This document shows, one piece after another, positions 1 through 14,901 of a stretch of 32,000 nt of DNA. The stretch covers positions 334,554 through 366,553 of the forward strand of contig NZ_MSZX01000002.1 of assembly GCF_002021565.1 (NCBI RefSeq), read 5' to 3'. Under the pieces are notes generated by a model that was not told where the DNA came from, searched no databases, and saw nothing but the letters and a program-made list of their open reading frames with translations. The DNA comes from Paenibacillus selenitireducens. Lineage in GTDB: Bacteria; Bacillota; Bacilli; Paenibacillales; Paenibacillaceae. Every line of letters starts with the position of its first letter. Within the stretch, counting starts at the first letter, position 1. The position numbers and the translations under genes were made by a program.

Positions 1-261
1 CAGCCCACTACCTCAACCGGTATTATCTGTGCTGATTCCATAGATTCATCTGATCACAGGTGATGAAATCCTGCGAATGAGTGAGTATATGTGAGATAAA
101 CCCTTAAAAACGAGGGAAGGGACACGTTAGCTCAATAATCAACTATAACGCGGCTGCCGGTACAAATCGGTAGCCGCGTTATGCTTACTGGCAGTATAGT
201 TCGATAACTCCAGGGATAAAAATCCATAAATGTGAGACAACCGAGTGATTAAGAAAATAGC

Positions 262-301
262 GCCACCCTCGATCGGGGCCCCCGCCCCGGCCGAGGGTGG
301 C
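262..301. other. GC-rich nested hairpin (terminator-like or REP-like)
   Basis: GCCACCCTCG (262-271) pairs with CGAGGGTGGC (292-301). An inner CGGGGC (274-279) pairs with GCCCCG (284-289). There is no adjacent T-run, so function is unclear. Confidence 0.3.
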
Positions 302-451: not shown

Positions 452-667
452 GTGGGGGGGATGGCAGAGAAGGTGAATGAGTATGCGGACATTGATAAGC
501 GTGTATCATTGTTCATTGAAGGCAAACACGGAAAGATCGGCATCATTATCCCTGATCATGCACCAACTTATGAAGAGTGGAAAGAATTTAGAGAATCATT
601 AGTTGAAATTGCTTTGAACATCGTTAGGAATAAGCAAATATCATTAAAAAAGGAAACCGCTGAGTAA
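452..667 (+). CDS. hypothetical small protein (68-71 aa)
   Basis: ORF from the track. A purine-rich GGTGGGGGGG run lies just upstream of the ATG at 461; 452 is a GTG alternative. A strong intrinsic terminator follows. No family recognised. Confidence 0.4.
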   Translation: MGGMAEKVNEYADIDKRVSLFIEGKHGKIGIIIPDHAPTYEEWKEFRESLVEIALNIVRNKQISLKKETAE

Positions 668-687
668 GCTGGTTTCCTTTATTTTTT
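649..687 (+). terminator. intrinsic terminator after the small ORF
   Basis: AAAGGAAACC (649-658) pairs with GGTTTCCTTT (671-680) and is followed by TTTTTT (682-687). Confidence 0.6.
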
Positions 688-731
688 GAAGAACCTCAAT
701 AATTAACTTTTGGCACAATCAATATGAGTAA

Positions 732-812
732 GACAAAACAACCCGGGATATTGCGGGACAATTGTTTATCAGTGAGAAAACCGTGCGCAATCACATTTCG
801 AACGTGATGTAG
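732..812 (+). pseudogene. gerE: upstream segment of a split gerE-type LuxR-family HTH regulator gene (equivalent to GerE residues ~26-51); ends in a junction-created TAG
   Basis: Frame-3 translation reads DKTTRDIAGQLFISEKTVRNHISNVM then a stop. This matches the GerE HTH core (DKTTKEIASELFISEKTVRNHISNAM, B. subtilis sequence from memory). An in-frame TAA at 729-731 and the absence of a start codon mean the N-terminal ~25 codons are missing here. Confidence 0.8.
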
Positions 813-829
813 TATGAAACACACCCTTG
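776..829 (+). other. putative attL (host B arm + AA crossover + element P-prime arm)
   Basis: CATTTCG-AA-CGTGATG is centred on 801-802. The CGAACGT core (799-805) is identical to 14819-14825. The P-prime arm 803-826 is an imperfect inverted copy of 14797-14820. Confidence 0.6.
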
Positions 830-961
830 ATAATACAAAAATGTGTCTTAGGTCCCTTGTTTTGGAGGGGGTAATACTCTCGAAAACAGGGATAAATATC
901 CATCATACGACATTTTTTACTAAATATTGGAATTTTGAATATTCCATATTTAAGGATTGTC

Positions 962-970
962 TGCTACAAT
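962..970 (+). promoter_or_regulatory. possible extended -10 element (TGcTACAAT) for the pilus operon
   Basis: TGCTACAAT lies in the AT-rich 215-bp leader, ~55 bp upstream of the first pilus gene. No good -35 box at 17-bp spacing. Confidence 0.2.
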
Positions 971-1024
971 TGCGATGAAATTGGAGAATATTGTATGAAA
1001 TAGATATAGGAATGAGGGTGAACG

Positions 1025-2107
1025 ATGATTAAGAACGAACGGGGATTTGCTCTCCCGATGGTGCTGATCTTAGTAACAGCTTTATCCATTTTAGGAATGG
1101 CCCTTCTTGGAGTAAGCGTAAGCCAAGCTGCCCGAACCGTTCATCAGGAGAAAAAAGAGCAGGCATTCTACATAGCGAAGTCTGGTGCAGATGCTGTTGC
1201 GTCATATATTATTGATCACTATAATCCTGTCTCGGTGAGTACCACTGATGAAATAAAGAACCTCAATAAGGGTTACTTAGAGCAGGACATATCGCTAGGA
1301 ACGGGCACTTTTCGGGCAAATGTTACGAGAGGCCCCGACGATACAATTGTTATTTCTTCCAAGGGAACCTTGGGGAAAGTTACGAACCAGGCTTCGTTGA
1401 CGTTAGGAATGGATGAACCTGTGGTGACGATAGATCACGCGATTCTTGCATCTAAGGATATTGTAAATACAGGGGAGACCATCGTGAACAACGGAGGTAA
1501 TATTGCTGCCGGTGGGAGCATCAGCGGGGATGAAATCAAATTAGATGGGGGGAGTGCAGAATCAAATTATTCAGGAGCTTTTCCTCCTGCAATCCCTTTT
1601 CCAGATATAACAGGTTGGATCACTAAAACATTAGTGATTAATGCCTCAATAAGTGAATCGGCTTATTACGGAAGTTATTTGTCTTCAGACGCTGTATTTG
1701 AAATCAACATGACGAATAACAAGGACATGCATATCGTTTTCAAGAAGTTTGAACCAGCTACGACTGTTATTAATGTGACAGGTACCGGCAACGGGATCAT
1801 TCATCTTTATATGGATAATATCAAAGTAGCTGCATCGTTTACGATTAACAATTTATTGAGTAAAAAGGTAATTCTTCATGTCAAAGATTCAATCGATCTC
1901 AATGGGTCTTTTAATTTGCACGGTGTCCTTTTGTATGCTCCCACGGCGGAATACACTTCTACGAATGGGTCGATAGATCTAAAAGGTGCAATGGTTACTA
2001 AAAAAGTGACATTACAAGGTAGTAATGTGATCAACTACGACGCCTCCATCGCCAATCTCATCAAAGAATCTCGCAAATTTGAACGCAAGAACTGGAGAAA
2101 TTCCTAG
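1025..2107 (+). CDS. PilX/PilK-like large minor pilin (pilus tip or initiation subunit)
   Basis: N-terminus ERG/FALPMVLILVTALSILGMALLG is a prepilin-like hydrophobic helix without Glu at +5. The C-terminal pattern LHGVLLYAP...GSIDLKGAMV...NYD is typical of PilX/TadG-like proteins. RBS GAGGGTG precedes the start. Confidence 0.7.
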   Translation: MIKNERGFALPMVLILVTALSILGMALLGVSVSQAARTVHQEKKEQAFYIAKSGADAVASYIIDHYNPVSVSTTDEIKNLNKGYLEQDISLGTGTFRANVTRGPDDTIVISSKGTLGKVTNQASLTLGMDEPVVTIDHAILASKDIVNTGETIVNNGGNIAAGGSISGDEIKLDGGSAESNYSGAFPPAIPFPDITGWITKTLVINASISESAYYGSYLSSDAVFEINMTNNKDMHIVFKKFEPATTVINVTGTGNGIIHLYMDNIKVAASFTINNLLSKKVILHVKDSIDLNGSFNLHGVLLYAPTAEYTSTNGSIDLKGAMVTKKVTLQGSNVINYDASIANLIKESRKFERKNWRNS

Positions 2108-2125
2108 CCAATCGGAGTGAATGAC

Positions 2126-2581
2126 ATGAACGTACGAAAACAAGAAGAAGGATTTACGTTAATCGAAGTTTTGGCGTCTTTTGTCCTCCTTGTGATCATG
2201 GCAACGGTGTTAGTGAGCCTATTCTCCAACGGATTTCGCTCCATTGACAAATTCGGTGAGCGAAGCGAGCAAATGCATTTAGCTCGGCAAGAAGTGGAAC
2301 AAGCTACAGCCGGCACAGGAAGTAACCTGACTATCCATCAAATTAAAGGTACCGGCCAACTGAAAATTGAAGGCGAGACGGTTGAGAAACAGATTAGCGG
2401 AACTTCGGGCAGCAAAATGATATTGTTCATTCCAACACCAACGCCATGGAAGACAGGTGTATCGTACACCTTAGATGACCAGGTTCGATATAACGGGAAA
2501 AACTATCGATGTGTCATCCCGCATACCTCGAATGCCAGCAACAAGCCAACCAGTACAAGTTCTCCATGGGTTACCATGTAA
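2126..2581 (+). CDS. minor pilin (prepilin-type N-terminus) fused to a C-terminal CBM5/12-type chitin-binding module
   Basis: The leader ends in G/FTLIEVL, giving Glu at +5. The C-terminus WKTGVSYTLDDQVRYNGKNYRCVIPHTSNASNKPTSTSSPW fits the W..Y..G..V.YNGK.Y.C..PHTS...P...W pattern of ChtBD3/CBM5-12. The track start 2117 is a GTG; the ATG at 2126 has GGAG at good spacing. Confidence 0.8.
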   Translation: MNVRKQEEGFTLIEVLASFVLLVIMATVLVSLFSNGFRSIDKFGERSEQMHLARQEVEQATAGTGSNLTIHQIKGTGQLKIEGETVEKQISGTSGSKMILFIPTPTPWKTGVSYTLDDQVRYNGKNYRCVIPHTSNASNKPTSTSSPWVTM

Positions 2582-2644
2582 CTTGTATCCTATATATACT
2601 TTACTCTTCACGGAGAATTCGGATCTAAGAATAGGGGATGGTAT

Positions 2645-3202
2645 ATGCGATACGTGAAGCTTGACCAGAAAGGCCTTACGATCATTGAACTGTTAGCCGC
2701 CATCGTACTGCTTACGATTGTTTTGTCTCTAGCTTTTTCATCCTATGCGTTTGGGGTCAAGTCCTTTCAACGCGCGAATGAGCAGAGCGAGCTTCAAGAT
2801 CAGGTACGAATTGTCTCTCATGTTATTACCAGCAAATTGCGATATGCCAGCGAAGTCGAACTTTTATCATCCTGTCCTACGAACCTTACTGAAGGATTTA
2901 ACTACATCTGTATGAATTCGAACAAAAAAACCATTGATCTACACACCTACGATAAAACAACATCCGCTCACAAGCTTCAAAGCCTAAATACCGCAAGCTC
3001 CAAACATCCAATCACCTACGACATCGCGTTCCAAAAAACAAATGACCATCTCTTATCCTACAGCCTGAAGAGCATGGCTGATCAACAAAAATTTGACGTA
3101 CAATCTGAGATCTTGTTATTGAATTTGGATTTGAATGCAGTATCCATAAAAATAACGGGAAGCACACCTTATCAAGGCATTGCTTTCAAAGAAAACGCTT
3201 GA
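2645..3202 (+). CDS. minor pilin (prepilin-type N-terminal cleavage/methylation domain)
   Basis: QKG/LTIIELLAAIVLLTIVLSLAF has Glu at +5. RBS GGGGA is upstream. The gene sits between the other pilin genes and pilB. Confidence 0.75.
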   Translation: MRYVKLDQKGLTIIELLAAIVLLTIVLSLAFSSYAFGVKSFQRANEQSELQDQVRIVSHVITSKLRYASEVELLSSCPTNLTEGFNYICMNSNKKTIDLHTYDKTTSAHKLQSLNTASSKHPITYDIAFQKTNDHLLSYSLKSMADQQKFDVQSEILLLNLDLNAVSIKITGSTPYQGIAFKENA

Positions 3203-3227
3203 ACTTTTTGGACGATAAATCCAAGGG

Positions 3228-4904
3228 ATGAGAGGTGAAAACGTGAATAAACCTCGGAAACGCATGGGGGATCTACTCGTTGAGTCCGGACTCCTTACGA
3301 ATGAACAGCTGCAAATTGCCCTGAATGAAAAGAAACCAACACAAAAGCTAGGGGAAACGTTATTGCAGCTCGGGTTCATCACGGAGCAAAGACTTATTGA
3401 GGTTCTAGAGTTTCAATTAGGTATTCCTTATGTCAGCTTATTCAAATACCCGATAGATACCAAGCTGTTAAGCATCGTGTCCAAAGAAACCGCCGAACGT
3501 AACAAGCTAATCCCTCTGAAAAGAGAAAGCAATAAGCTATTTGTCGCCATGGCTGACCCAATGGATTTTTATGCGATTGATGATTTGCGGCTCTCGACGG
3601 GTTTTCAGATCGAAGTGTCCATTGCGACGAAGGAAGACATTCATAAAGCCATCAGCAAATATTACAGCCTAGTGGATAACATGGAAGACCTGTTAGGCGC
3701 AGACCTCAAGTTTAAAGAGAAGGATGAAGATACGGTTACCGATGAAGACTCTCCGGTCGTCAAATTGGTCAACCAAATGATTCTTGCAGCCTATCAGCAA
3801 AAAGCGAGTGATATTCACATCGATCCGCAAGAGTCAGATGTTGTGATTCGATATCGGGTTGACGGGATCCTGAGGACAGAACGGAAATTTGCGAAACAAA
3901 TGCTGAGCATGATCGTGGCAAGGATCAAAATTTTATCCAATCTGAACATTACCGAATTCAGAATTCCGCAAGACGGTCGGATCAAAATTAATCTGGATTC
4001 CAATGCGATAGATCTTCGGGTTTCCACACTGCCAACAGTCTATGGCGAAAAGGTCGTCATGCGAATTCTCGACATCGGAAGTTCAGCTATAGATTTGAAA
4101 AGAATGAATTTTCATCCCACGAATTATGAACGTTTTGTGCGCATGATCGAAAAGCCGACAGGCATTGTGCTGATTACCGGTCCTACGGGTTCTGGCAAAT
4201 CTTCTACACTCTATTCCGCTTTGGGACAATTAAATTCGCCGGATGTCAACATTATTACCGTGGAAGATCCGGTGGAGTATCGGCTGGAAGGGGTTAATCA
4301 GGTTCAAGTCAATGTGAGTACCGGGATGACATTCTCGAAGGGATTGCGTGCGATTTTGCGTCAGGATCCGAACATCGTTATGGTCGGTGAAATTCGGGAT
4401 ACAGAGACAGCGGAGATTGCAGTTCGTGCTTCGTTAACAGGGCACTTAGTCTTGAGCACGATCCACACGAATGACGCGATCAGCACGATTACGAGATTAA
4501 TAGACATGGGAATTGAGCCTTTTCTCGTAGCTGCCTCGTTGTCTGGCGTCGTATCACAGAGGCTTGTCCGGCGCATTTGTCAGGAGTGTAAGACGCTGCA
4601 GCTTCCTTCGCAGCGGGAGACTGAAATTTTCGAAAAGCGAGGATTACAGATTGAGGCTGTCGCGAGAGGAAAAGGCTGCGGCGCTTGCAATATGACAGGC
4701 TACAAAGGAAGGATCGCTATTCATGAATTATTGGTGATCGATGATGAAATTCGCCGAATGATCATGAACAATCGTTCCATGGAACAGATCAAGGAGATCG
4801 CGGTGATGAAAGGAACCATTTTTTTAATTGATGATGGCTTAATTAAAGTAAAAGAAGGCTATACAACCACAGAAGAAGTCCTGCGCGTAGCCATCAGTGA
4901 GTAA
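3228..4904 (+). CDS. pilB: type IV pilus assembly ATPase PilB (GspE family) with N-terminal MshEN-type domain
   Basis: Walker A GPTGSGKSS, the tetracysteine motif CQEC...CGAC, and GspE-type N-terminal domains are present. An alternative GTG start at 3243 has a better RBS. Confidence 0.93.
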   Translation: MRGENVNKPRKRMGDLLVESGLLTNEQLQIALNEKKPTQKLGETLLQLGFITEQRLIEVLEFQLGIPYVSLFKYPIDTKLLSIVSKETAERNKLIPLKRESNKLFVAMADPMDFYAIDDLRLSTGFQIEVSIATKEDIHKAISKYYSLVDNMEDLLGADLKFKEKDEDTVTDEDSPVVKLVNQMILAAYQQKASDIHIDPQESDVVIRYRVDGILRTERKFAKQMLSMIVARIKILSNLNITEFRIPQDGRIKINLDSNAIDLRVSTLPTVYGEKVVMRILDIGSSAIDLKRMNFHPTNYERFVRMIEKPTGIVLITGPTGSGKSSTLYSALGQLNSPDVNIITVEDPVEYRLEGVNQVQVNVSTGMTFSKGLRAILRQDPNIVMVGEIRDTETAEIAVRASLTGHLVLSTIHTNDAISTITRLIDMGIEPFLVAASLSGVVSQRLVRRICQECKTLQLPSQRETEIFEKRGLQIEAVARGKGCGACNMTGYKGRIAIHELLVIDDEIRRMIMNNRSMEQIKEIAVMKGTIFLIDDGLIKVKEGYTTTEEVLRVAISE

Positions 4905-5952
4905 TGGGAAGGGGAAGCTGGAGCAATTGGAGCAATTATTACGAATGGCTTTTGAACAAAAAGCATCGGACTTGCACCTTACGGTAGGTGTACCACCCAT
5001 GATCCGAATCAATGGGGATCTCAAGCAATATGGCGAAGATAATTTGAAGCCCGAAGACACGATCAAGATGGCGAAGAGCATTATGACTCGAGATCAATGG
5101 GAGGTTTTGCAGGAAAAGAGAGAGCTGGATTTTTCCTTTGGGATTAAGGATATGACTCGATTCCGTGTGAATGTGTACCATCAACGTTCTCAAATAGGTA
5201 TCGCGCTCCGCCTTATACCAACAACCATCCCGGCATTGGATACTTTGCATGTACCGGAAGTTTTGCGTCAGCTAAGCACCAAAGCGCAAGGATTGATTCT
5301 CGTCACAGGCCCGACGGGAAGCGGCAAATCAACGACGCTCGCTTCGATGATCGATGACATGAACAAGAGAATGCGCAAACATGTTATTACGTTAGAGGAT
5401 CCGATTGAGTACTTGCACCGCAACCAATATTCCGTCATTAATCAACGGGAAATCGGACATGATTCGCATAGCTTTTCGAACGGACTGCGGGCCGCGCTAC
5501 GGCAAGATCCCGATGTCATCCTGGTTGGAGAGTTACGAGATCTAGAGACGATATCCATTGCCATTACAGCGGCAGAGACGGGGCACTTGGTGCTTGGAAC
5601 CTTACATACGCCGAACGCGCCTGCAACGATTGATCGTATTTTGGACGTGTTTCCAGCCAATCAGCAAGGTCAAATTCGGATTCAACTTGCATCTGTTTTG
5701 ATCGCAATTCTATCACAACGGCTTTTCCCGACCATCGACAATCGAAGCAGGCGCGTGGCAACGGAATTGTTAATTAATAATCATGCTGTTGCCAACTTGA
5801 TTCGGAATGAGAAAGTCCACCAAATCTATAACTTCATGCAGACGGGGAAATCCTTTGGCATGCATACCCTGGAAATGTCCATGAACGATTTGATCGAGAA
5901 AAAGGTGATTACTCGAGAGGTCGCAGCACCATATTTTAGGGAGATGAGTTAA
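4897..5952 (+). CDS. pilT: type IV pilus retraction ATPase PilT
   Basis: 351 aa with ASDLHL near the N-terminus, Walker A GPTGSGKST, and LVGELRD / GHLVLGTLHT motifs. The GTG start overlaps the pilB stop by 8 nt. Confidence 0.92.
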   Translation: MSNGKGKLEQLEQLLRMAFEQKASDLHLTVGVPPMIRINGDLKQYGEDNLKPEDTIKMAKSIMTRDQWEVLQEKRELDFSFGIKDMTRFRVNVYHQRSQIGIALRLIPTTIPALDTLHVPEVLRQLSTKAQGLILVTGPTGSGKSTTLASMIDDMNKRMRKHVITLEDPIEYLHRNQYSVINQREIGHDSHSFSNGLRAALRQDPDVILVGELRDLETISIAITAAETGHLVLGTLHTPNAPATIDRILDVFPANQQGQIRIQLASVLIAILSQRLFPTIDNRSRRVATELLINNHAVANLIRNEKVHQIYNFMQTGKSFGMHTLEMSMNDLIEKKVITREVAAPYFREMS

Positions 5953-7160
5953 TGGCTCAGTTTGCATATATCGGTCGTGATCGTGCCGGCAAGTCGCGTA
6001 AAGGGAAAGTTTCTGGTTCAACCCGGAAAGAAGTTGTCATGGAACTTCGCGAGAAAGGGATTGCCATTTCCGAGATCGTCGAGCTGGAAGCAAATGTGTT
6101 CAATACGGATATTACCATTGGCAACCCAGTTAAGACGCAAGATTTCGTGATTTACCTCCGTCAGTTTGCAACGTTAATCGTGGCCGGCGTGTCGGTTGCG
6201 GAAGCTACGAAGATATTGGCGGAACAGACCGCAAGTAAAGCTTTGCGAAAGGCACTAATCAATGTAGAGGAAGAATTACGATCTGGTAAACCGTTGTCAC
6301 TTGCTGCAGCCCTTCATCCAAAAATCTTTCCACCCATGTTCATTAATTTGGTACAAGCCGGGGAAGCCACGGGGAACTTGGATGAGACGCTGGAACGATT
6401 AGCTTCTTTTTTTGAGAAACAGCACTATACCGTCCAAAAGGTGAAGTCCGCACTAACTTATCCAATTGCCATCACGATTGTCGCCATTGGGGTCGTTATC
6501 TTCCTGCTTACCAAAATCGTGCCCACGTTTGCCTCGATGTTTATGCAATTCGATGCAGAATTACCGTGGATTACGAAGACCGTCTTGGCGATCAGTGACT
6601 GGATGCAGCGTTTTTGGTGGCTCATTATCTTGCTGATTGTAGGGATCGTGGTTGGCATCACAGTGGCGATGAGAAATCCATCCAGTAAATATTATCTTGA
6701 TCATGCCATTCTCAAAATCCCGATCTTTGGGAAGTTAGTGCAGAAATCCGTCATTGCCAGATTTACAAGAACATTAAGCTCGTTGTTTAAAAGCTCGGTT
6801 CCGATTCTGGATGCGCTAAGTATCGTAGACAAAGTCGTCATGAATGAAGTCATGAGTAGGGTGTTGAAGGAGTCTAGGGTCTCGCTCCAAGGAGGGAAAT
6901 CGCTGTCTGCTCCAATGAAGCAGCATTGGATATTTCCGCCGCTCGTAACACAGATGATCGCCATTGGGGAACAATCTGGTTCTCTCGATTTCATGTTGGA
7001 AAAGGTCGCGGATTTCTATGAGAAAGAAGTCGATGCGACGGCGGATGCGCTGAAAGGCTTAATCGAGCCGATCATGATCATCATGCTGGCAGGTATTGTT
7101 GGATTTATTGTGTTGTCAATTATCGTGCCGATGTTCGATATTTTCAACCATGTCAAATAG
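5952..7160 (+). CDS. pilC: type IV pilus platform protein PilC (GspF family)
   Basis: 402 aa polytopic protein with the duplicated GspF-type architecture. The ATG overlaps the pilT stop (TAATG). Confidence 0.92.
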   Translation: MAQFAYIGRDRAGKSRKGKVSGSTRKEVVMELREKGIAISEIVELEANVFNTDITIGNPVKTQDFVIYLRQFATLIVAGVSVAEATKILAEQTASKALRKALINVEEELRSGKPLSLAAALHPKIFPPMFINLVQAGEATGNLDETLERLASFFEKQHYTVQKVKSALTYPIAITIVAIGVVIFLLTKIVPTFASMFMQFDAELPWITKTVLAISDWMQRFWWLIILLIVGIVVGITVAMRNPSSKYYLDHAILKIPIFGKLVQKSVIARFTRTLSSLFKSSVPILDALSIVDKVVMNEVMSRVLKESRVSLQGGKSLSAPMKQHWIFPPLVTQMIAIGEQSGSLDFMLEKVADFYEKEVDATADALKGLIEPIMIIMLAGIVGFIVLSIIVPMFDIFNHVK

Positions 7161-7211
7161 GTTATAGTGGCAACATTATAATAGATTACTAATTTTATAG
7201 GAGGAATAAGT

Positions 7212-7745
7212 ATGTTACAAATGGCAATGAAAAGGGTCAAAAATGAGAAAGGGTTAACGCTGATTGAGTTACTGGCAGTGGTTGTTATTTTGGGGATCGT
7301 CGCGGCTATTGCGATACCTGCGATTGGGGGATTGATTGACAGAACGAAAAAAGACGCACATGTTGCGAATGCAATTCAAATGATAGCAGCTGCAAAAATG
7401 GCTGTTGTGGGTGATGAGAGAGCAAGACCTACCGCTACAACAATTACAAAATATATATCTTTAGACTGGTTAGTTGTAAATGGATATCTTGATCCAGTGA
7501 AGGATCCCGATGGTACAACGAATGGTTACTCAGTTGGTACTGCTGCTGCCACACCTCCACCTAGTACTGTAGCTACAGCAGGTTCCCATGTTTTAGCAAC
7601 ATTAACCACATCAACTGGTGCAATTTCTTATAGCGTATTTCTAAAAAATGATACACGCGGAGTACGAGAAACTGCAACTAGTACAGGTACTGCAGCTACT
7701 GACTACGTGAAAGAATCAACCGTGAACCGTGACGCAGTTAAATAG
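7212..7745 (+). CDS. pilA: major type IV pilin PilA
   Basis: NEKG/LTLIELLAVVVILGIVAAIAIPA is a canonical class III signal with Glu at +5. A strong AGGAGG RBS precedes the start. The C-terminal half is rich in Thr/Ser/Ala. A hairpin follows the gene. Confidence 0.88.
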   Translation: MLQMAMKRVKNEKGLTLIELLAVVVILGIVAAIAIPAIGGLIDRTKKDAHVANAIQMIAAAKMAVVGDERARPTATTITKYISLDWLVVNGYLDPVKDPDGTTNGYSVGTAAATPPPSTVATAGSHVLATLTTSTGAISYSVFLKNDTRGVRETATSTGTAATDYVKESTVNRDAVK

Positions 7746-7810
7746 GTCAACTCCATAGTCACTTGTGGCCTAGAAGTTAATCTTGTTACAATCAGACATC
7801 TATAACTAAT

Positions 7811-7833
7811 CACGCCCTCGTTAGGGGGGCGTG
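7811..7833 (+). terminator. hairpin after pilA (probable leaky terminator or attenuator)
   Basis: CACGCCC (7811-7817) pairs with GGGCGTG (7827-7833), followed only by a weak TT-rich tract. It lies between the major pilin gene and pilD. Confidence 0.4.
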
Positions 7834-7862
7834 TTATCCATTGTCCTAACTGGAGGCAAACC

Positions 7863-8615
7863 ATGACCGCGTTTTATTCCATTTATGCTGCGATTGCAGG
7901 TTTATTGTTAGGCTCCTTTTATAATGTGGTAGGTTTACGGGTTCCCTTAGGCGAATCGATCATTCGACCACGCTCGCATTGCACGACATGCCAACGTACA
8001 CTGGGAGCCAGCGAGCTGGTCCCTTTTTTTTCTTATCTTTTCTTAAGGGGTGCCTGCCGGGGATGCGGTACGAAAATATCATTCCTTTATCCGCTAACCG
8101 AAATGGGGACTGCGCTGTTATTTGTTAGCATGCCATGGTTCATCGGCTGGTCGCCGGAATTATTCGTCGCATGGGCGTTAATCTCCCTGTTGATTATCAT
8201 TTGTATTTCAGATCTTCGGTATATGTTAATTCCGAACAAAGTGTTGCTGGTCTTTTCGGTTATTTTTCTCGGATTGCGTCTCCTCCTTCCAGTAGATCCT
8301 TGGTGGGATATGTTCCTGGGTGCCGGTGTTGGCTTTGCGTTGCTGTTACTTATCGCGATCGTGAGCAAGAACGGCATGGGCGGAGGAGATATTAAATTGT
8401 TTGCCGTCCTCGGCATGGTCTTAGGATGGAAAGGTGTATTACTTGCTTTCCTGTTATCTTGCTGCTATGGCACACTCATCGGCATCGTTGGAATGCTTCT
8501 CGGGAAAGTACGAAGAGGGAAGCCAATGCCGTTCGGACCTGCCATTGCATTAGGCACATTAACTGCATATTTGTGGGGAGAAGCACTTCTTACATGGTAT
8601 TACCAGTTTCTATGA
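7863..8615 (+). CDS. pilD: prepilin peptidase / N-methyltransferase PilD (A24 family)
   Basis: N-terminal Cys pairs CTTC...CRGC are present. The catalytic Asp motifs are ISDLRYMLIPN and GGGDIKLF. The protein is polytopic. Confidence 0.92.
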   Translation: MTAFYSIYAAIAGLLLGSFYNVVGLRVPLGESIIRPRSHCTTCQRTLGASELVPFFSYLFLRGACRGCGTKISFLYPLTEMGTALLFVSMPWFIGWSPELFVAWALISLLIIICISDLRYMLIPNKVLLVFSVIFLGLRLLLPVDPWWDMFLGAGVGFALLLLIAIVSKNGMGGGDIKLFAVLGMVLGWKGVLLAFLLSCCYGTLIGIVGMLLGKVRRGKPMPFGPAIALGTLTAYLWGEALLTWYYQFL

Positions 8616-8633
8616 TGTAGTGGAGGAGAAAAG

Positions 8634-9698
8634 ATGAGAGCAAGTCGGACAACGCGTGTAAATCAAGAACATCATACCCATGTAGCAAACATTGTGAACA
8701 GAAAGCAGCCGAAAAAGAAAATGGTCAGCTTGATGATCAAAGACCATGTCATTCGATATATGGATGCCAAGCGACCGAATTTGCGGGGAGCAACCGCCTT
8801 CGGGGAATATGATTTGCCTTCAGGCATCATTCATGAAGGCAGGATTGCAGAGCCGGATCGGTTGCGTACCATTCTGAAGGATTGCATTCAAAAGTGGAAA
8901 CTCAAAGACCGAGAAGTGCAGTTTATTGTCCCGGATTCTGTCGTGATCGTACGGAAGATTGAGATTTCGGCGGAGATCGAGGAGGAGGAGATCAAGGGAC
9001 ATCTATATTTGGAATTAGGAACGAACATCCATCTTCCCTTTGAGGATCCGATATTTGATATTGATTTTCTAGGACGCTCCGATGAGAAACAAGAAATTCT
9101 ATTATTTGCCGCACCGGAGCAGATTGTTAACGAATACGCACAGATCTTGACCAGCGCAGGTCTGAAGCCTGTTGCAGCCGATGTGTCTTCGCTGGCCATC
9201 TATCGTTTATTTTATAAAGTGAATGATGAATTGGAATTGGACATTGTCTCGGAAGCACCGGTTCTATCCGTTCAATTCGACCTGCAGACGGTAACGGTAG
9301 GCGTCATTCATAAGCATAAATTAATGCTTCTTCGTCAATTTCGGATGAATCTATCCATCGATAACTGGGAACGGCAAACGAACAAAAGAGATGTCAATAC
9401 ACCGGTGTGGATCGGCGATGAGAGCTACTTAACCTATGAAATTAATGTAATGATCGGAGAGATTCAGCGCGTCATCAGCTTCTATCGTTCCGTTACGAAT
9501 CATCATGAAGATGAGATTGAAACGATAATATTAACGGGAGATTATCCGTATTTAGAGGATATCGCAACCAATCTGCATCAACATTTTGAAAAAATGCCTT
9601 TTACGTTCTCAAAAGAATTGTTCGAGACGCAATCGAAGGAACTCGTTCCACCGAAATATTATTTGCCGCTAGGATTAGCCCTAAAGGGGGGCGTCTAA
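8634..9698 (+). CDS. pilM: type IV pilus assembly protein PilM (actin-like ATPase fold)
   Basis: 354 aa, GGAGGAG RBS, position directly upstream of pilN with an overlapping stop/start, and PilM-like sequence organisation. Confidence 0.8.
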   Translation: MRASRTTRVNQEHHTHVANIVNRKQPKKKMVSLMIKDHVIRYMDAKRPNLRGATAFGEYDLPSGIIHEGRIAEPDRLRTILKDCIQKWKLKDREVQFIVPDSVVIVRKIEISAEIEEEEIKGHLYLELGTNIHLPFEDPIFDIDFLGRSDEKQEILLFAAPEQIVNEYAQILTSAGLKPVAADVSSLAIYRLFYKVNDELELDIVSEAPVLSVQFDLQTVTVGVIHKHKLMLLRQFRMNLSIDNWERQTNKRDVNTPVWIGDESYLTYEINVMIGEIQRVISFYRSVTNHHEDEIETIILTGDYPYLEDIATNLHQHFEKMPFTFSKELFETQSKELVPPKYYLPLGLALKGGV

Positions 9699-10264
9699 TG
9701 CTGAGTGAGATTAACTTGCTCCCCCAACGGGAGCAGCGAAGCATTTTTTTTGTCATTGGGATCACGGTCATATTGGCTTTCGGTTTGCTTAGCACTGGCG
9801 TTCTCTTCTTCCAATATCAGTCCCTGAAGACGGATCAAGATCGACAACAGGCGGAAGCGAAGACGGTCGAGAAAATGATTGAAATCGAATCGCAAAAACT
9901 CCTGCAAGGCGCGAGTACCTCGGAAGTAGGTCAATATGAACAGATTGTTCACACGATCGAGCAACTGCCGGTGGATACGATCCGAATTCTTGACCAATTA
10001 TCTGCGGCCTTGCCTCAGAGCGGCTTCTTTACTTCCTATTCTTATCAGGATCCTGGAACGGTGTCGGTGATTGCGGATTTCGGGACATCAGAGGATGCTG
10101 CGCAATATCTTTATCATTTAACATATGCGGATTGGGTACGCAAAATCGAGATCAGCTCTCTAGTAAAACAAGATAGTGGGATAAAGGTCCTTTACAAAGC
10201 GACGTATACGCTCGAATTGAAACGGGATGTATTCGCTGAAGTGAAAGGAGCGGGTACAGAATGA
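9698..10264 (+). CDS. pilN: type IV pilus assembly protein PilN
   Basis: The N-terminal EINLLPQRE signature is followed by a single TM helix. The gene is translationally coupled to pilM and pilO. Confidence 0.85.
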   Translation: MLSEINLLPQREQRSIFFVIGITVILAFGLLSTGVLFFQYQSLKTDQDRQQAEAKTVEKMIEIESQKLLQGASTSEVGQYEQIVHTIEQLPVDTIRILDQLSAALPQSGFFTSYSYQDPGTVSVIADFGTSEDAAQYLYHLTYADWVRKIEISSLVKQDSGIKVLYKATYTLELKRDVFAEVKGAGTE

Positions 10265-11037
10265 ACGCGAAACAGGTAAGAATATTAACCTTGGCTGTCT
10301 CGTGTATTCTCATCCTTTCCGGGTTGCTATTGTTTTATTTCAATCGTATCCAGCCTACACAAAGCCAAGTGAAGACGTTGAAAAGTAAAATTGCAACAGA
10401 TAAAAAGGTGCTGGAAAAGCTGCAATCGCAGGCCCATGAACAGCAGCAGAGTAAGGCGGATCTTCTGGAGTTGCAGCGTAAGGTTCCTGTCGAAGCCTTT
10501 GTGGACCAGATGATTCTCGATCTACGGAAGGATGAACAACAATCCAAGAGTAAGATTCGTAATATGGGGTTGAGCTATACGAATACATCATTAAATGAAT
10601 TGAGTCAAGTGATAGGTATTCCTAACCTACAATCACCGAACGCGACAGTTTCGCAGCCTGTCAATACAGCAGCATCAAATGAAGGAACTTCAACGGTGCC
10701 AGCTGATACGAGTGCCAATCCAGCACCATCAAGCGAAAATCCCGCAGTGCAGCTGGAAGTTTACAAAATAGGCCTCACCTTAAGCGTTGAATCACCGACC
10801 TATAACGATTTCAAAACCTTTGTACTTGGGATCCAACAACTAGACCGCGTTATTCAAATTGATGCCATATCATTCACGGATACCGCCAACACCTATAACC
10901 TCACGGTATCCGCATTCTATGCGCCGCAATTCCAAGGATTTGAGGAACGGCTTCCACGGGCCTCGTTCCCGGCACCAAGCGGCAAGACTGTACCGATTCA
11001 AGTGACGAATCCCGTAACAGAACCTGCAGGAACTTAA
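10261..11037 (+). CDS. pilO: type IV pilus assembly protein PilO-like
   Basis: An N-terminal TM helix and coiled-coil segment precede a conserved C-terminal domain. There is an internal Ser/Thr/Pro/Asn-rich insert. The start overlaps the pilN stop (ATGA). Confidence 0.7.
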   Translation: MNAKQVRILTLAVSCILILSGLLLFYFNRIQPTQSQVKTLKSKIATDKKVLEKLQSQAHEQQQSKADLLELQRKVPVEAFVDQMILDLRKDEQQSKSKIRNMGLSYTNTSLNELSQVIGIPNLQSPNATVSQPVNTAASNEGTSTVPADTSANPAPSSENPAVQLEVYKIGLTLSVESPTYNDFKTFVLGIQQLDRVIQIDAISFTDTANTYNLTVSAFYAPQFQGFEERLPRASFPAPSGKTVPIQVTNPVTEPAGT

Positions 11038-11056
11038 GAAAGAGGGTGAACGTACG

Positions 11057-12499
11057 ATGTCCATTCGTGTTCTCATTGTTGATGATACGAAATTTCTACG
11101 CCTGATGTTAACGGATATATTAACAAAATCCGGGTATGAGGTTGTAGGTCAAGCAGAGAACGGTGTTATTGCCGTCGACAAGTTCAGAGAATTGCGGCCC
11201 GATCTGGTGATTATGGATATTACGATGCCAGAGATGGACGGAATTACGGCGTTAAAGGAGATTAGGGCCATCGAGCCGCAGTCTGTCATCTTAATCTGCT
11301 CTGCGATGAGTCAGCGAGATCTCATTTCCAAGGCATTAAAGGCAGGCGCGAACAATTATGTGATGAAGCCGTTCGAACCTGAGCGCGTCAAGGAGATCAT
11401 TCTTGAAGTTATGCCACTAATGGAGAACAACAAAAAAGAAAAAGCATCCATAAAAGCTCCGATTGAGCCGGAACCTGTGCAAGAATCCGTGGTGACGGAA
11501 GACCAGGCAACTAAATTGCGCAAATCGTTTGCTGAACAGACCAGTGAACAGTATATCTTATCTGAAGCAGCCGTAGCGCCGATAGAAGACTCGTTTCCAG
11601 AACCAGAACTAGAATCACCAATAGAACCTCGCCTTGAAGTGAAGGAAGCACTTGTCTCGGAAACGCCCGACTTGGTGGAACAGGTAGAACCCATGTTGGA
11701 AGCAAGAATATCTTCCGAAGCGGAAGAAGAGTTCGGCACATTACTCGAAGGCATTGAAAATCCAACCCCAACAGGGATCACTGCGGATCATGAACGAAGC
11801 AACCCTGGCGTATTGGAAGAAATAACAGCTGCATCTGCGGAAGCTGCAGTTTCGGTTACCGCTGTCAACGAGATAAATATCTCCGCGGAATCCCTCCCGG
11901 GTGATTTTACGCATCTGTCCAAACGTCTGGAGGCTGAGCTCAAGCATACCCCTGAGGAGCCTATCTCTAATACATCAGAAGAGCAGCAAGCTAGCGCAGA
12001 GGAAGTATCTTTAGACGAGAACAACGAAGAACAGACTGGAACGAATCATCTTGATGAGAATGAACTTGATGAACAAGAAGGATCACCTTCCCGTTCATCG
12101 AATCCTGCCGTCTGGTTCGAACAATTGATTTTTTCCAATTCCAATAAAACGGGGGATGCTGAGATGGCAAGAAATCCGCAAATGATAGATGCTGAGGTCA
12201 GACAGGAACATCATGTGGCAACAATCGATCAAGGTAGCAGTTCAAGCATGCTGCCAGAACTGAAACGCAAAAATATGCGGAACTTCGCAAGCAGTATCAT
12301 GTGCAAATTTTCAGAACAGGTCGATGGGAAGGAAATGGACTATTTCGTTGTCTACAACGAATTTGACAAGTCGATTCGGATCGATATGATCTCTCCCGAT
12401 GAGAAGCGCAACAGCATTCAATTATCGCTCGACGGGTTCACTTTTATTATGGAATGGCTCGAACAGAAGGGCGTACGCATCGATAAAGTCTTAGATTAA
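11057..12499 (+). CDS. CheY-like response regulator receiver fused to a ~230-aa acidic low-complexity linker and an uncharacterised C-terminal domain
   Basis: Residues 1-120 align closely with Bacillus CheY as I remember it (ILIVDD, PDLV.MDITMPEMDGITALKEI, CSAM, VMKPF). The rest is Glu/Pro/Ser-rich, followed by a ~100-aa globular-looking tail. RBS AGAGGGTG precedes the start. Confidence 0.85.
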   Translation: MSIRVLIVDDTKFLRLMLTDILTKSGYEVVGQAENGVIAVDKFRELRPDLVIMDITMPEMDGITALKEIRAIEPQSVILICSAMSQRDLISKALKAGANNYVMKPFEPERVKEIILEVMPLMENNKKEKASIKAPIEPEPVQESVVTEDQATKLRKSFAEQTSEQYILSEAAVAPIEDSFPEPELESPIEPRLEVKEALVSETPDLVEQVEPMLEARISSEAEEEFGTLLEGIENPTPTGITADHERSNPGVLEEITAASAEAAVSVTAVNEINISAESLPGDFTHLSKRLEAELKHTPEEPISNTSEEQQASAEEVSLDENNEEQTGTNHLDENELDEQEGSPSRSSNPAVWFEQLIFSNSNKTGDAEMARNPQMIDAEVRQEHHVATIDQGSSSSMLPELKRKNMRNFASSIMCKFSEQVDGKEMDYFVVYNEFDKSIRIDMISPDEKRNSIQLSLDGFTFIMEWLEQKGVRIDKVLD

Positions 12500-12529
12500 T
12501 AGAAGCCATCAAAGTTAAGGAGGACAATC

Positions 12530-12817
12530 ATGAAGAACAAGCAAATCAGTCAATTAACTTTGTGCGATTCTTATAACCATTCTCAGATCATACCGATCGC
12601 CAATGCGAGGCAAATCTTTGACAAAATCGTTAAGGTCTACGTCAGCCGTGAAGATATCTATAATCACTCGAAGACGCCGAGGGAGTTCCAAGCCTATCAA
12701 AACATTGATAGCGAAACCTTGCTTATTGTCGTGAGTATCCGCAGTGATTGGTGGACGCCATGGAAAGGCATGGTGACGGAAGACGTTTATTTTTATCGAG
12801 AACCTTTTGCGCAATGA
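12530..12817 (+). CDS. hypothetical protein (95 aa); candidate accessory or directionality factor
   Basis: A strong AAGGAGG RBS lies 7 nt upstream of the ATG. No family recognised. The gene sits between the pilus/regulator block and the recombinase gene. Confidence 0.5.
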   Translation: MKNKQISQLTLCDSYNHSQIIPIANARQIFDKIVKVYVSREDIYNHSKTPREFQAYQNIDSETLLIVVSIRSDWWTPWKGMVTEDVYFYREPFAQ

Positions 12818-12908
12818 GGTACAGAAGTGAATGAAGAAGCGGGCAACTCCAATCAGGGAGAGGCTCGTTTCTTTTTTTTGTTCTATAAAGGCGCGGAAAG
12901 GAGCGGTT

Positions 12909-13061
12909 ATGGTACAAGACGGCAGGTTCATAGACATAATTATCACAAGCGGAGAGGAGCGGACCGAATGCCTAAAGACGCCAAACCATCGTATCGAATA
13001 CATGTACATCCCGGAAAGGAGAATAGAGAACACATCATGGATGAGCTTGCCAAGCAAGTGA
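12909..13061 (+). CDS. possible small ORF (~50 aa)
   Basis: This is an internal ATG of the 12831 ORF, preceded by AAAGGAG at 6-nt spacing. No family recognised. The competing overlapping frames look compositionally implausible. Confidence 0.2.
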   Translation: MVQDGRFIDIIITSGEERTECLKTPNHRIEYMYIPERRIENTSWMSLPSK

Positions 13062-13199
13062 TTCAGCGCAATGTAGTGGATTTTCACATGCAAAACGAAA
13101 GGGTAAAAAAAATCCCCCTACCAGGACGAGCAGGCTGAACCAATAAAGGAAGCAGACATTTTCTAATGATGAAAATGAATCGTCATGGGGGAGGCGATA

Positions 13200-14762
13200 A
13201 TGAGAGCAGCCATTTATGTACGTGTTAGTACGACCAAAGACAGTCAGAAGGATAGCCCGGAACATCAAATTGCAGCTTGTAAATATTTTGCGGAGGACAT
13301 GGGGTGGGAGACAGCGGAAGACATGATATATGAAGACCGCGAATCTGGGACGAATATTACCGATAGGCTAGCGATTCAGCAAGCGTTAAAGGATGCACAT
13401 CAGGGCGCATTCCAAGTGATTATTTTCGCCGCATTATCGCGGTTCGCACGTGATATTGGGGATTCGATCAATCTCAAGCGTAAGCTGGTGAATGCCCTTC
13501 GGATTCGCCTCATCTCCATCGACGACCATTATGATTCCGACCGAGATGATGAGATGTTATTCTCGATTATCTCGAGTATTAATCAGTCCTTGAGCGAGCA
13601 GATCAGCCGAAGTACACGTCGGGGGAAGCGGGAATCCGCGTTAAAAGGGAATTTTACAGGAAATCGGCCACCGTATGGATATGACAAAGAAACGAGAAAT
13701 GGCTTAAAGACATTGGTACCCAATGAGAACCAGAAGATGGTTGTTGAGACGATTTTCCAACTGTATACAGCCAATCATTTCGGGGAGAAATCTATCGCTG
13801 CTTATTTGAATGATCAAGGAATCCCCTCCCCGAAGGATGGAAAATGGGGTATTACCACGATACAACGCATCTTGCAAAACGAAGCCTATGTCGGGAAAAA
13901 TCGTTCCTCGAAATTTGAAATTCGAAAAGTGTATACCAATGTCGATGATATGACAGAACGTAAAAAAGTATTAGTTCAAAAGCCAAAACGCGAATGGCGT
14001 TACGCGCATAACAGCTGGACGCATCAAGGCATTATTGATGAAGCAACGTTCCGGCTTGCTGAGAATCTTCGCTTGCAACGCGGCGGTGGACAACGTGGCG
14101 GGCCTCGCCAAAAGGTTAATGTTTTCGCGGGAATGATGAAATGCGCACATTGCGGTTCCTCCATGGTCAGCATGAAATCCACACGTCGAATTCGAGAGCA
14201 ATCGAGACGAGATTACCGATACCTCATTTGTTCCAGAAGAAGAAGGCAAGGAGAGTCAGGCTGCTGCAACAATTATTGGCTGCCGTATGATCCCTTTCAC
14301 GAAGATCTCATCCAATGCATATCACAAATATTACGCAGTACATTTTCGCCAGAGGAGCTGTTGGAGAAACATAAGCGTCTTGTCCAAGTCACGCACACGG
14401 ATCTCGAATCCGAAATGAAAAAACGCAAAAAGTGGATTATCGAAAATCGTAAATGTCTGATGGAGCTTCGCAAAGAACGACTCAAAGGGCATGTGTTGGA
14501 TGAACATCAATATGAATTAGAAAAAAGTCATTATGAGCGGGAAATCGTGCAGCATGAGAGCAGACTCATTCAACTTCAGCAGGAATGGCAGCGTAAAACG
14601 GATATGACGGATTTATACGAGAAGACGATGGAACGGTTAAATGATCTGTTGAATGTATCCTTCGAAACCTTTGATGATAGCCAACTTACATTGAAAAAAC
14701 TCATCTCTCGTATAGAAGCGGATCGTCAGGGAAATGTACATGTGTTCATGACATTTGATTAG
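13200..14762 (+). CDS. large serine recombinase (resolvase catalytic domain + recombinase domain + zinc ribbon + coiled coil), SpoIVCA/SprA-like
   Basis: The sequence shows MRAAIYVRVST with catalytic Ser10, ALSRFARD, GNRPPYGYDKE, the Cys cluster CAHCGS...CSRRRRQGESGCC, and a C-terminal heptad-rich region. The ATG at 13200 has a GGGGAGG RBS; the track start is 13185. Confidence 0.9.
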   Translation: MRAAIYVRVSTTKDSQKDSPEHQIAACKYFAEDMGWETAEDMIYEDRESGTNITDRLAIQQALKDAHQGAFQVIIFAALSRFARDIGDSINLKRKLVNALRIRLISIDDHYDSDRDDEMLFSIISSINQSLSEQISRSTRRGKRESALKGNFTGNRPPYGYDKETRNGLKTLVPNENQKMVVETIFQLYTANHFGEKSIAAYLNDQGIPSPKDGKWGITTIQRILQNEAYVGKNRSSKFEIRKVYTNVDDMTERKKVLVQKPKREWRYAHNSWTHQGIIDEATFRLAENLRLQRGGGQRGGPRQKVNVFAGMMKCAHCGSSMVSMKSTRRIREQSRRDYRYLICSRRRRQGESGCCNNYWLPYDPFHEDLIQCISQILRSTFSPEELLEKHKRLVQVTHTDLESEMKKRKKWIIENRKCLMELRKERLKGHVLDEHQYELEKSHYEREIVQHESRLIQLQQEWQRKTDMTDLYEKTMERLNDLLNVSFETFDDSQLTLKKLISRIEADRQGNVHVFMTFD

Positions 14763-14795
14763 CTTGCTGTTCTTGCGGATACGCTCCTCTATATT

Positions 14796-14848
14796 CATGT
14801 GTGCTTCAAACCCCATCACGAACGTAATGCAGAAACTGAATGTAAAGG
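14796..14848 (+). other. putative attR (element P arm + AA crossover + host B-prime arm)
   Basis: CATCACG-AA-CGTAATG is centred on 14821-14822. By hand alignment, the P arm 14797-14820 matches the reverse complement of 803-826 at 18 of 24 positions. Confidence 0.6.
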
Positions 14849-14901
14849 GTCGTTCGCAAGCGGTTGTCGAGTTGATCAAGCTTGGGGAGCTAAAAATCTA
14901 A
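14821..14901 (+). pseudogene. gerE: downstream segment of the split gerE-type gene (equivalent to GerE residues ~49-74, with stop)
   Basis: The translation NVMQKLNVKGRSQAVVELIKLGELKI-stop matches the GerE C-terminus (NAMQKLGVKGRSQAVVELLRMGELEL, from memory). There is no start codon or RBS of its own. Confidence 0.8.

Follow-up and report, generated by a model that had tools for sequence, protein, structure and literature searches.

The two recombination-site-like sequences that bound a 14,020-bp segment of the Paenibacillus selenitireducens genome are most likely (probability about 0.85) the attL and attR of an element that intervenes in the sporulation gene gerE. In this reading the sites were created, and are acted on, by the large serine recombinase that the element itself encodes, the element has captured a type IV pilus operon, and its excision alone cannot restore gerE. 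The DNA analyzed is a 32-kb window of a P. selenitireducens contig, and window coordinates are used throughout (Table 1). An earlier note on this DNA had described the sites as a serine-recombinase attL/attR pair, a description now confirmed by the two gerE halves, the symmetry of the att arms, empty sites in other genomes, homologous elements and the attP sites of phages. It missed the identity of the interrupted gene, which is a known hotspot for such elements, and the truncation of that gene at codon 26. The kind of element is itself already known, and what is new here is the pilus cargo, a 56-aa candidate directionality factor and a gerE gene without codons 1-25.

Table 1. Features of the gerE-intervening element and its flanks in the 32-kb window.
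Feature	Position	Strand	Composition or basis
IS110-family element, 3' end	32-131		Sequence identity to IS110-associated DNA
Strong hairpins	145-182 and 262-301		15-bp and 18-bp stems in an ORF-free stretch
Orphan ORF BVG16_05755	452-667		68-71 aa; sole match among 5.8 billion proteins is itself
Intrinsic terminator of orphan ORF	640-695		Abuts truncated gerE
gerE 5' fragment, truncated	732-809	+	Codons 26-51, then reads into an element TAG; tblastn with B. subtilis GerE
attL	779-826	+	gerE-side B arm 779-800, central AA 801-802, element-side P' arm 803-826
Type IV pilus operon, 13 genes	1025-12884	+	Genes end at 12817; Pfam and colinearity with L092 and L093
Promoter-like block (putative)	12905-12939	+	Upstream of the 56-aa gene
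56-aa basic protein (candidate directionality factor)	12968-13138	+	pI 9.9; directly upstream of the recombinase
Large serine recombinase, 520 aa	13200-14762	+	ORF open from 13185; Resolvase, Recombinase and zinc-ribbon domains (Pfam)
attR	14799-14844	+	Element-side P arm 14799-14820, central AA 14821-14822, gerE-side B' arm 14823-14844
gerE 3' fragment	14821-14901	+	Codons 49-74 plus stop

The product of gerE is a small LuxR-type regulator of late mother-cell gene expression. The left junction of the element lies in a 5' fragment of the gene (encoding DKTTRDIAGQLFISEKTVRNHISNVM) and the right junction in its 3' fragment (encoding NVMQKLNVKGRSQAVVELIKLGELKI and the stop), with the insertion point at the two bases that open the codon for Asn49 (nt 145-146). 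When the fragments are rejoined, the encoded protein is 100% identical to GerE residues 26-74 of five Paenibacillus species. A scan that took one genome for each species yielded 80 loci with uninterrupted gerE, and these empty-site alleles place the breakpoint where it had been predicted: of 72 alignments between the rejoined DNA and intact gerE, 65 cross it without a gap. All 74 intact alleles have the central AA unchanged, because it makes up the first two positions of the codon for Asn49. No synteny was found between the flanks of the window and the 80 intact-gerE loci, which we attribute to the lack of a close relative in the sample. The annotations of P. amylolyticus, Paenibacillus sp. 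GM1FR and two Marinicrinis species include truncated ‘GerE’ products of 51-65 aa; these are probably the 5' fragments of further split alleles, which suggests that such elements are common in the Paenibacillaceae.

The junction strings quoted in the earlier note all occur in the sequence, the right one (CATCACGAACGTAATG) at 14814-14829 as given and the left one (CATTTCGAACGTGATG) at 794-809 rather than 795-809. The core shared by the two junctions is identical only over cgAAcgt (798-804, 14819-14825). The non-palindromic AA is present at both junctions, and there is little other identity between the partner sites. The symmetry lies in the element-side arms, where 14797-14820 matches the reverse complement of 803-826 at 18 of 24 positions, the count reported before. 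Agreement of this extent has a frequency of about 1e-6 among random site pairs of the window, and none of its ~32,000 positions is the center of a site that reaches 18/24 (maximum 17). Since overlap with gerE could explain the inner 7 bp, the outer 17 bp of the arms were assessed separately; alone they match at 11 of 17 positions (background 8e-4; shuffle 4.4e-4), so that the arm similarity stands far above chance in both the shuffled and the background controls. The symmetry reaches 22 bp on each side of the central AA, ending at 824 in the P' arm of attL, and then stops; the predicted imperfectly palindromic attP would thus be a site of ~46 bp.

Both arms are also recognizable outside the window, being conserved in eight other elements or phages. 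The P arm of attR (GTGTGCTTCAAACCCCATCACG) fits the half-site consensus GTGtTTCAAACCACATCtCc, which is followed by the central AA and was derived from 13 half-sites (nine P arms and four P' arms). The P' arm of attL (GTGATGTAGTATGAAACACACCC) is conserved in a related element of Cand. Cohnella colombiensis (L005), with a looser match in another related element (L090) and in the attP of phage Lily. Beyond about 23 bp from the center, the sequences of the elements are unrelated. These results bear on the simplest alternative, in which two unrelated gene fragments happen to have a short core in common and no recombination unit exists. Such a coincidence could draw on the junctions having only 7 identical bases in common and on the gerE codons imposing part of the inner symmetry. 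It is contradicted by background frequencies of about 1e-6 (18/24) and 5e-4 (outer arms alone), by the conservation of the arms in eight elements or phages and by the 65 alignments that rejoin the fragments as an uninterrupted gerE. We regard chance resemblance as refuted by the arm statistics, the arm conservation and the gapless rejoined alignments, and its residual likelihood as negligible. The claim that 803-14822 is one recombination unit is upheld by the same three lines of evidence.

The near-palindromic attB that was proposed together with attP holds in its inner part only. In the P. selenitireducens genome 6 of the inner 7 bp are symmetric, and the outer positions are at background (9/20). 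In the consensus of the 74 intact gerE alleles the inner symmetry falls to 4/7, and most of this is explained by codons for His-Ile-Ser-Asn-Val-Met that fix the sequence. As judged from these alleles, attB is only weakly palindromic, with much of its symmetry codon-forced, and it is not truly pseudo-palindromic outside the P. selenitireducens genome. A GAAAC motif in the gerE-side right arm (14832-14836) is 4 bp nearer to the center than the GAAAC of the P' arm (816-820), and no equivalent of the shifted motif was seen in the left arm. A zinc-ribbon motif that is shifted between the attB and attP half-sites of serine integrases has been reported, and the GAAAC shift in the window recalls it.

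The two sites are in direct orientation, with the AA on the same strand at both, the gerE-side arms outside and the element-side arms inside, which predicts excision rather than inversion. The idea of a switch in which the recombinase flips the 14-kb segment in the manner of Hin/Gin-type DNA invertases was considered, as the catalytic domain matches a ‘DNA invertase’ family (PHROG 125). The protein has the large C-terminal Recombinase and zinc-ribbon domains of integrases and its sites are directly oriented; on the latter ground we reject an invertase switch, which we judge very improbable.

The position of the strand exchange can be narrowed by comparing junctions across the family. In L090, attL and attR are identical through the AA and diverge at the next base, and in the window the identity of the junctions starts 2 bp to the left of the AA; the 22-bp core shared by the junctions of L005 makes this element uninformative on the crossover. 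If the family shares one mechanism, the limits from L090 and the window together place the exchange in the AA or in the two base pairs on its left. Sequence identity cannot separate these two options, and it is the symmetry axis alone that would select the AA.

The recombinase carries all three Pfam domains above their cut-offs (PF00239, PF07508, PF13408), with the YVRVST serine motif in its N-terminus (MRAAIYVRVSTT). It is 100% identical to P. selenitireducens protein P0001, and the likely start at 13200 yields the same 520 aa. It also matches an integrase family (PHROG 95), and its nearest solved relative is SprA/YokA of SPbeta (E about 6e-14). Between 803 and 14822, Pfam searches detected this single recombinase and no recJ.

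Directly upstream is the gene for the 56-aa basic protein, which matches no Pfam or PHROG family. Homologues (39-46% identity) occupy the same position in five other loci (L001, L004, L005, L090 and L091), and the gene is conserved upstream of the recombinase in every recovered member of the group whose recombinases are 66-70% identical to that of the window. This position makes the protein a candidate recombination directionality factor. Ahead of it, the motif GGTTATGGTACAAGAC-N8-CATAGACATAA is the sole conserved block when the otherwise diverged upstream regions of four elements are aligned. The block has a CATA-type -10 and an imperfect fit at -35. The -10 of sigma-E and sigma-K promoters is of the CATA type in the published consensus, so a mother-cell promoter of the sigma-E/K type is plausible here, and we tentatively label the block as a putative one. 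The two sigma factors have the same -10 sequence (PMC517825). A scan for sigma-70 promoters around the recombinase returned fewer sites than in shuffled sequences.

Homologous recombinases were found in elements that split gerE at the same codons as in the window and that have conserved arms, so that the att sites of the homologues agree with those described here; phages Lily and Xenia likewise carry the predicted attP. The gerE-splitting relatives, with recombinases 66-70% identical to that of the window, are those of Cand. Cohnella colombiensis (L005), P. amylolyticus (L004) and P. septentrionalis (L002), together with L090 and L091. All five resemble the window element in the small upstream gene, the promoter-like block, the arms and the insertion point, and differ from it in their cargo, which consists of a SIR2-domain protein, a toxin-antitoxin system, a methyltransferase or, in L090, next to nothing; pilus genes are present in none. 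The L005 element is about 11.4 kb long, with a recombinase 68% identical to that of the window and arms that match at 21/24 positions. L090 is a minimal element of 3.35 kb, with a recombinase 70% identical. These two are the relatives with a recovered left junction, and in both the gerE 5' fragment has its full length. We found no description of the five elements in the literature.

Several other features of these loci were observed. The only genes in the L090 segment 9391-12964 are the small gene, that of the recombinase, a retropepsin-like gene of 129 aa, one of 86 aa and a DUF6398 gene, and the attP of L090 is perfectly palindromic beside the AA (TCTCC-AA-GGAGA). In L005 (3834-15451) the recombinase adjoins a gene for a 1019-aa protein with a SIR2_2 domain, which may be a defense gene. 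Two further loci, from P. turicensis (L009 9926-12275) and a Cohnella MAG (L023 9926-11995), have an intact gerE, then 1.7-2 kb of remnant cargo that lacks a recombinase, and next an attR-type junction with a duplicated gerE 3' end and 55-93 bp of downstream DNA; the duplication begins 13 bp to the left of the AA. These loci look like products of decay, or of an alternative resolution, of such elements beside a restored gerE. A metagenome scan with a P' arm pattern (GTGATGTNNTNTGAAACACAC) gave 10 matches, none of them beside gerE and all attributable to chance.

For the element in the window, the established serine-integrase mechanism suggests the following course of events. Dimers of the recombinase would bind attL and attR and, together with a directionality factor (for which the 56-aa protein is the candidate), would bring the sites into synapsis and cut both with a 2-nt stagger at the AA. 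Serine integrases recombine attP with attB unaided and require such a factor for attL with attR. The subunits would then rotate by 180 degrees and religate the DNA, leaving a gerE-type attB on the chromosome and releasing a 14-kb circle that carries attP. As AA differs from its reverse complement, religation would occur only in the alignment that permits excision, and we propose this as the source of polarity. By analogy with gin, skin and SPbeta, excision would be timed to the mother cell during sporulation.

The outcome of such an excision would depart from the usual one at the 5' end of gerE. In the alignment to intact gerE, homology starts abruptly at 732 (Asp26) and is preceded by an in-frame TAA (729-731). 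A tblastn search with GerE located codons 1-25 nowhere in the window, and the RBS and promoter are missing as well. The excision product would hold only codons 26-74, with neither a start codon nor a promoter; excision alone thus cannot restore a functional gerE. This structure can be read in three ways: the element was stranded by a recent deletion, there was a second insertion, or another gerE copy exists elsewhere. When GerE protein clusters were consulted for a second copy, P. selenitireducens was not among the members listed.

The DNA to the left of position 732 has a GC content of 40.6%, versus about 45-46% for the modules of the element and the right flank. The orphan ORF matches no Pfam or PHROG family. 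The segment at 32-131 is 93% identical to plasmid DNA of P. rhizovicinus (L104 4001-4073), located ~320 bp downstream from the gene for an IS110 transposase, and 78% identical to a P. cellulosilyticus replicon, which has four match places, two of them within L105. The two hairpins match no Rfam family even at a permissive threshold, and an Rfam search of the whole window returned no family at gathering score, with sub-threshold noise only (at 1-1100). A group II intron or other structured RNA at the gerE truncation point was rejected, as Rfam gave no support and an ORF and terminator lie in between.

As an intact gerE is the usual gain of excision and is unattainable by this event alone, the element may be a stranded relic. 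The att sites would then be real by descent and the switch defunct, a later deletion or rearrangement having truncated gerE to a pseudogene, and the element would stay in place or excise without consequence. The replacement of gerE codons 1-25, RBS and promoter by the orphan ORF and its terminator, with an IS110-family end further left, fits this scenario, and recombinase-less remnants are known in other genomes (L009, L023). Against it, the full-length recombinase ORF can be aligned with its homologues from one end to the other, the two arms agree with the consensus of the family, and neither the small upstream gene nor its promoter-like block is disrupted. The remaining 49 codons of gerE are also undamaged and encode a protein 100% identical to that of relatives. 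We consider a stranded relic unlikely, if still credible, and prefer the reading in which the recombinase acts on the two sites.

A different reading of the left flank is that gerE has been interrupted twice, by the element and by a second insertion at codon 25/26 that extends to the left of the window, in which case two rearrangements would be needed. The sharp stop of gerE homology at 732 is what such an insertion would produce, and the DNA to its left looks foreign, with an orphan ORF, low GC (40.6%) and an IS110-family end. The 731 bp to the left of the gerE fragment hold no recombinase, att-like symmetry or gerE N-terminal coding sequence, which argues against a second element, and we know of no doubly interrupted sporulation gene. 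A double interruption is, in our view, quite improbable.

The cargo of the element is a complete pilus module. Its genes encode a PilX-like protein, two minor pilins (one with a CBM_5_12 domain), PilB, PilT, PilC, a pilin, the prepilin peptidase PilD, PilM/N/O, a 480-aa response regulator and a 95-aa ORF (12530-12817) that matches no Pfam or PHROG family. Two other Paenibacillus genomes (L092 1-11881 and L093 1-11857) have chromosomal operons that are orthologous to the module and colinear with it; amino acid identity to these operons is 86% for PilB and PilT and 96% for the 95-aa ORF. DNA homology to both stops at about 12884, just ahead of the recombination module, and on their right side the L092 and L093 operons have no recombinase, gerE fragment or att arm. 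Pilus genes were found within 10 kb of an intact gerE in none of 80 relatives. The element is thus a mosaic of three parts: a P' arm, an operon captured from a chromosome, and the recombination module of 1.9 kb. No phage genes were detected: by Pfam, all the larger ORFs of the element are pilus, regulator or recombinase genes or match no family, and PHROG searches with the two small ORFs (12530-12817 and 12968-13138) were likewise negative.

A far-reaching version of this account would have the serine-recombinase module convert a complete type IV pilus operon to a 14-kb island that could be excised, potentially also transferred, and that the chromosome of the mother cell loses at sporulation, in a gerE gene perhaps interrupted twice and requiring two rearrangements to rebuild; we regard this combination as speculative and improbable. 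A literature search returned no paper that links gene-intervening elements to type IV pili, and we found no description of pilus cargo or of a doubly split sporulation gene for such elements.

With published precedent for the element itself, its interest lies mainly in the pilus cargo, the set of att sites, the candidate directionality factor and the truncated gerE. The locus widens the range of gerE-intervening elements beyond the Bacillus cereus group to the Paenibacillaceae, in a family that spans 45-kb phages of P. larvae and a 3.35-kb minimal element and uses one half-site (GTGTTTCAAACCACATCTCC, followed by AA) and one gerE dinucleotide. The comparative set should be of use for defining the att-site grammar of this recombinase clade and for testing the 56-aa candidate directionality factor, and it adds orthogonal serine integrases with a mapped attB/attP pair for genome engineering. 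The captured pilus operon suggests that such modules can mobilize large chromosomal operons, and the truncated gerE illustrates how a developmental switch may decay or grow more complex.

Among known systems, the P. larvae phages encode related integrases. A scan of viral contigs with a strict full-attP pattern gave no match, and a scan with a looser P-arm pattern recovered a P-AA-P' site directly behind the gene for an integrase of 520 aa with 44% identity to the window recombinase. In the contig of phage Lily the P arm starts 10 bp past the integrase stop, and in phage Xenia the center of attP is 27 bp past it. For Xenia, integration into gerE has been observed experimentally, with a duplication of nine bases and the breakpoint in the phage at 38,418 (PMC12453123, 2025). 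In the Xenia genome we predict the central AA at 38,424-38,425, and the nine bases ending there are CATCTCCAA (38,417-38,425); the coincidence of this sequence with the reported duplication indicates that Xenia uses the same gerE core. The integrase is common to the temperate P. larvae phages Xenia (genus Fernvirus), Lily, Shelly, Likha and PBL1c. These phages resemble the window element in an integrase with 44% identity over its full length, an attP directly after the integrase stop and the half-site GTGTTTCAAACCACATCTCC-AA. They differ from it in being complete phages of 40-45 kb, whereas the window element is without phage genes, and their small upstream ORF has no clear relation to the 56-aa protein (hhalign probability of 9.7% between the 56-aa family and the phage ORF in the equivalent position, not significant). 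The integrase homologue and attP logic are common to both, but the absence of phage genes led us to reject a prophage of the Xenia/Lily group.

The closest non-phage counterpart is gin of B. cereus ATCC 10987, which occupies nt 138-146 of gerE (CATCTCAAA, Ile47-Ser48-Asn49) (PMC5595907). Cleavage of gin is predicted at the terminal AA, and GirC plus GirX recombine the gin sites in vitro (PMC5595907); the AA of the window is the same gerE dinucleotide. The attB of gin lacks symmetry (PMC5595907), in agreement with the weak attB symmetry found here. Both elements are non-phage, sit at the same position in gerE, have att sites that form an imperfect inverted repeat around a short core, and encode a large serine recombinase and a small accessory protein, the latter being a candidate only in the window. 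At 28.6 kb, gin carries three serine recombinases (girA, girB and girC), recJ and restriction-modification genes, whereas the 14-kb window element has one recombinase and a pilus operon. GirX is a 42-aa protein encoded far from girC, while the candidate in the window is 56 aa long and encoded directly upstream of the recombinase. Excision of gin rebuilds a functional gerE, which excision of the window element alone cannot do. The three recombinases and recJ are conserved in all gin elements described (PMC5595907); with one recombinase, no recJ and different cargo, the window element is not gin in the strict sense, as compared by published description. The skin element (SpoIVCA, in sigK) and SPbeta (SprA/SprB, in spsM) of B. 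subtilis differ from the window element in target gene and att sequences, are distant from it in sequence and are prophages or prophage-like. Like the window element they depend on a large serine recombinase, with a small directionality factor as the counterpart of the 56-aa candidate, and both are excised developmentally from mother-cell sporulation genes.
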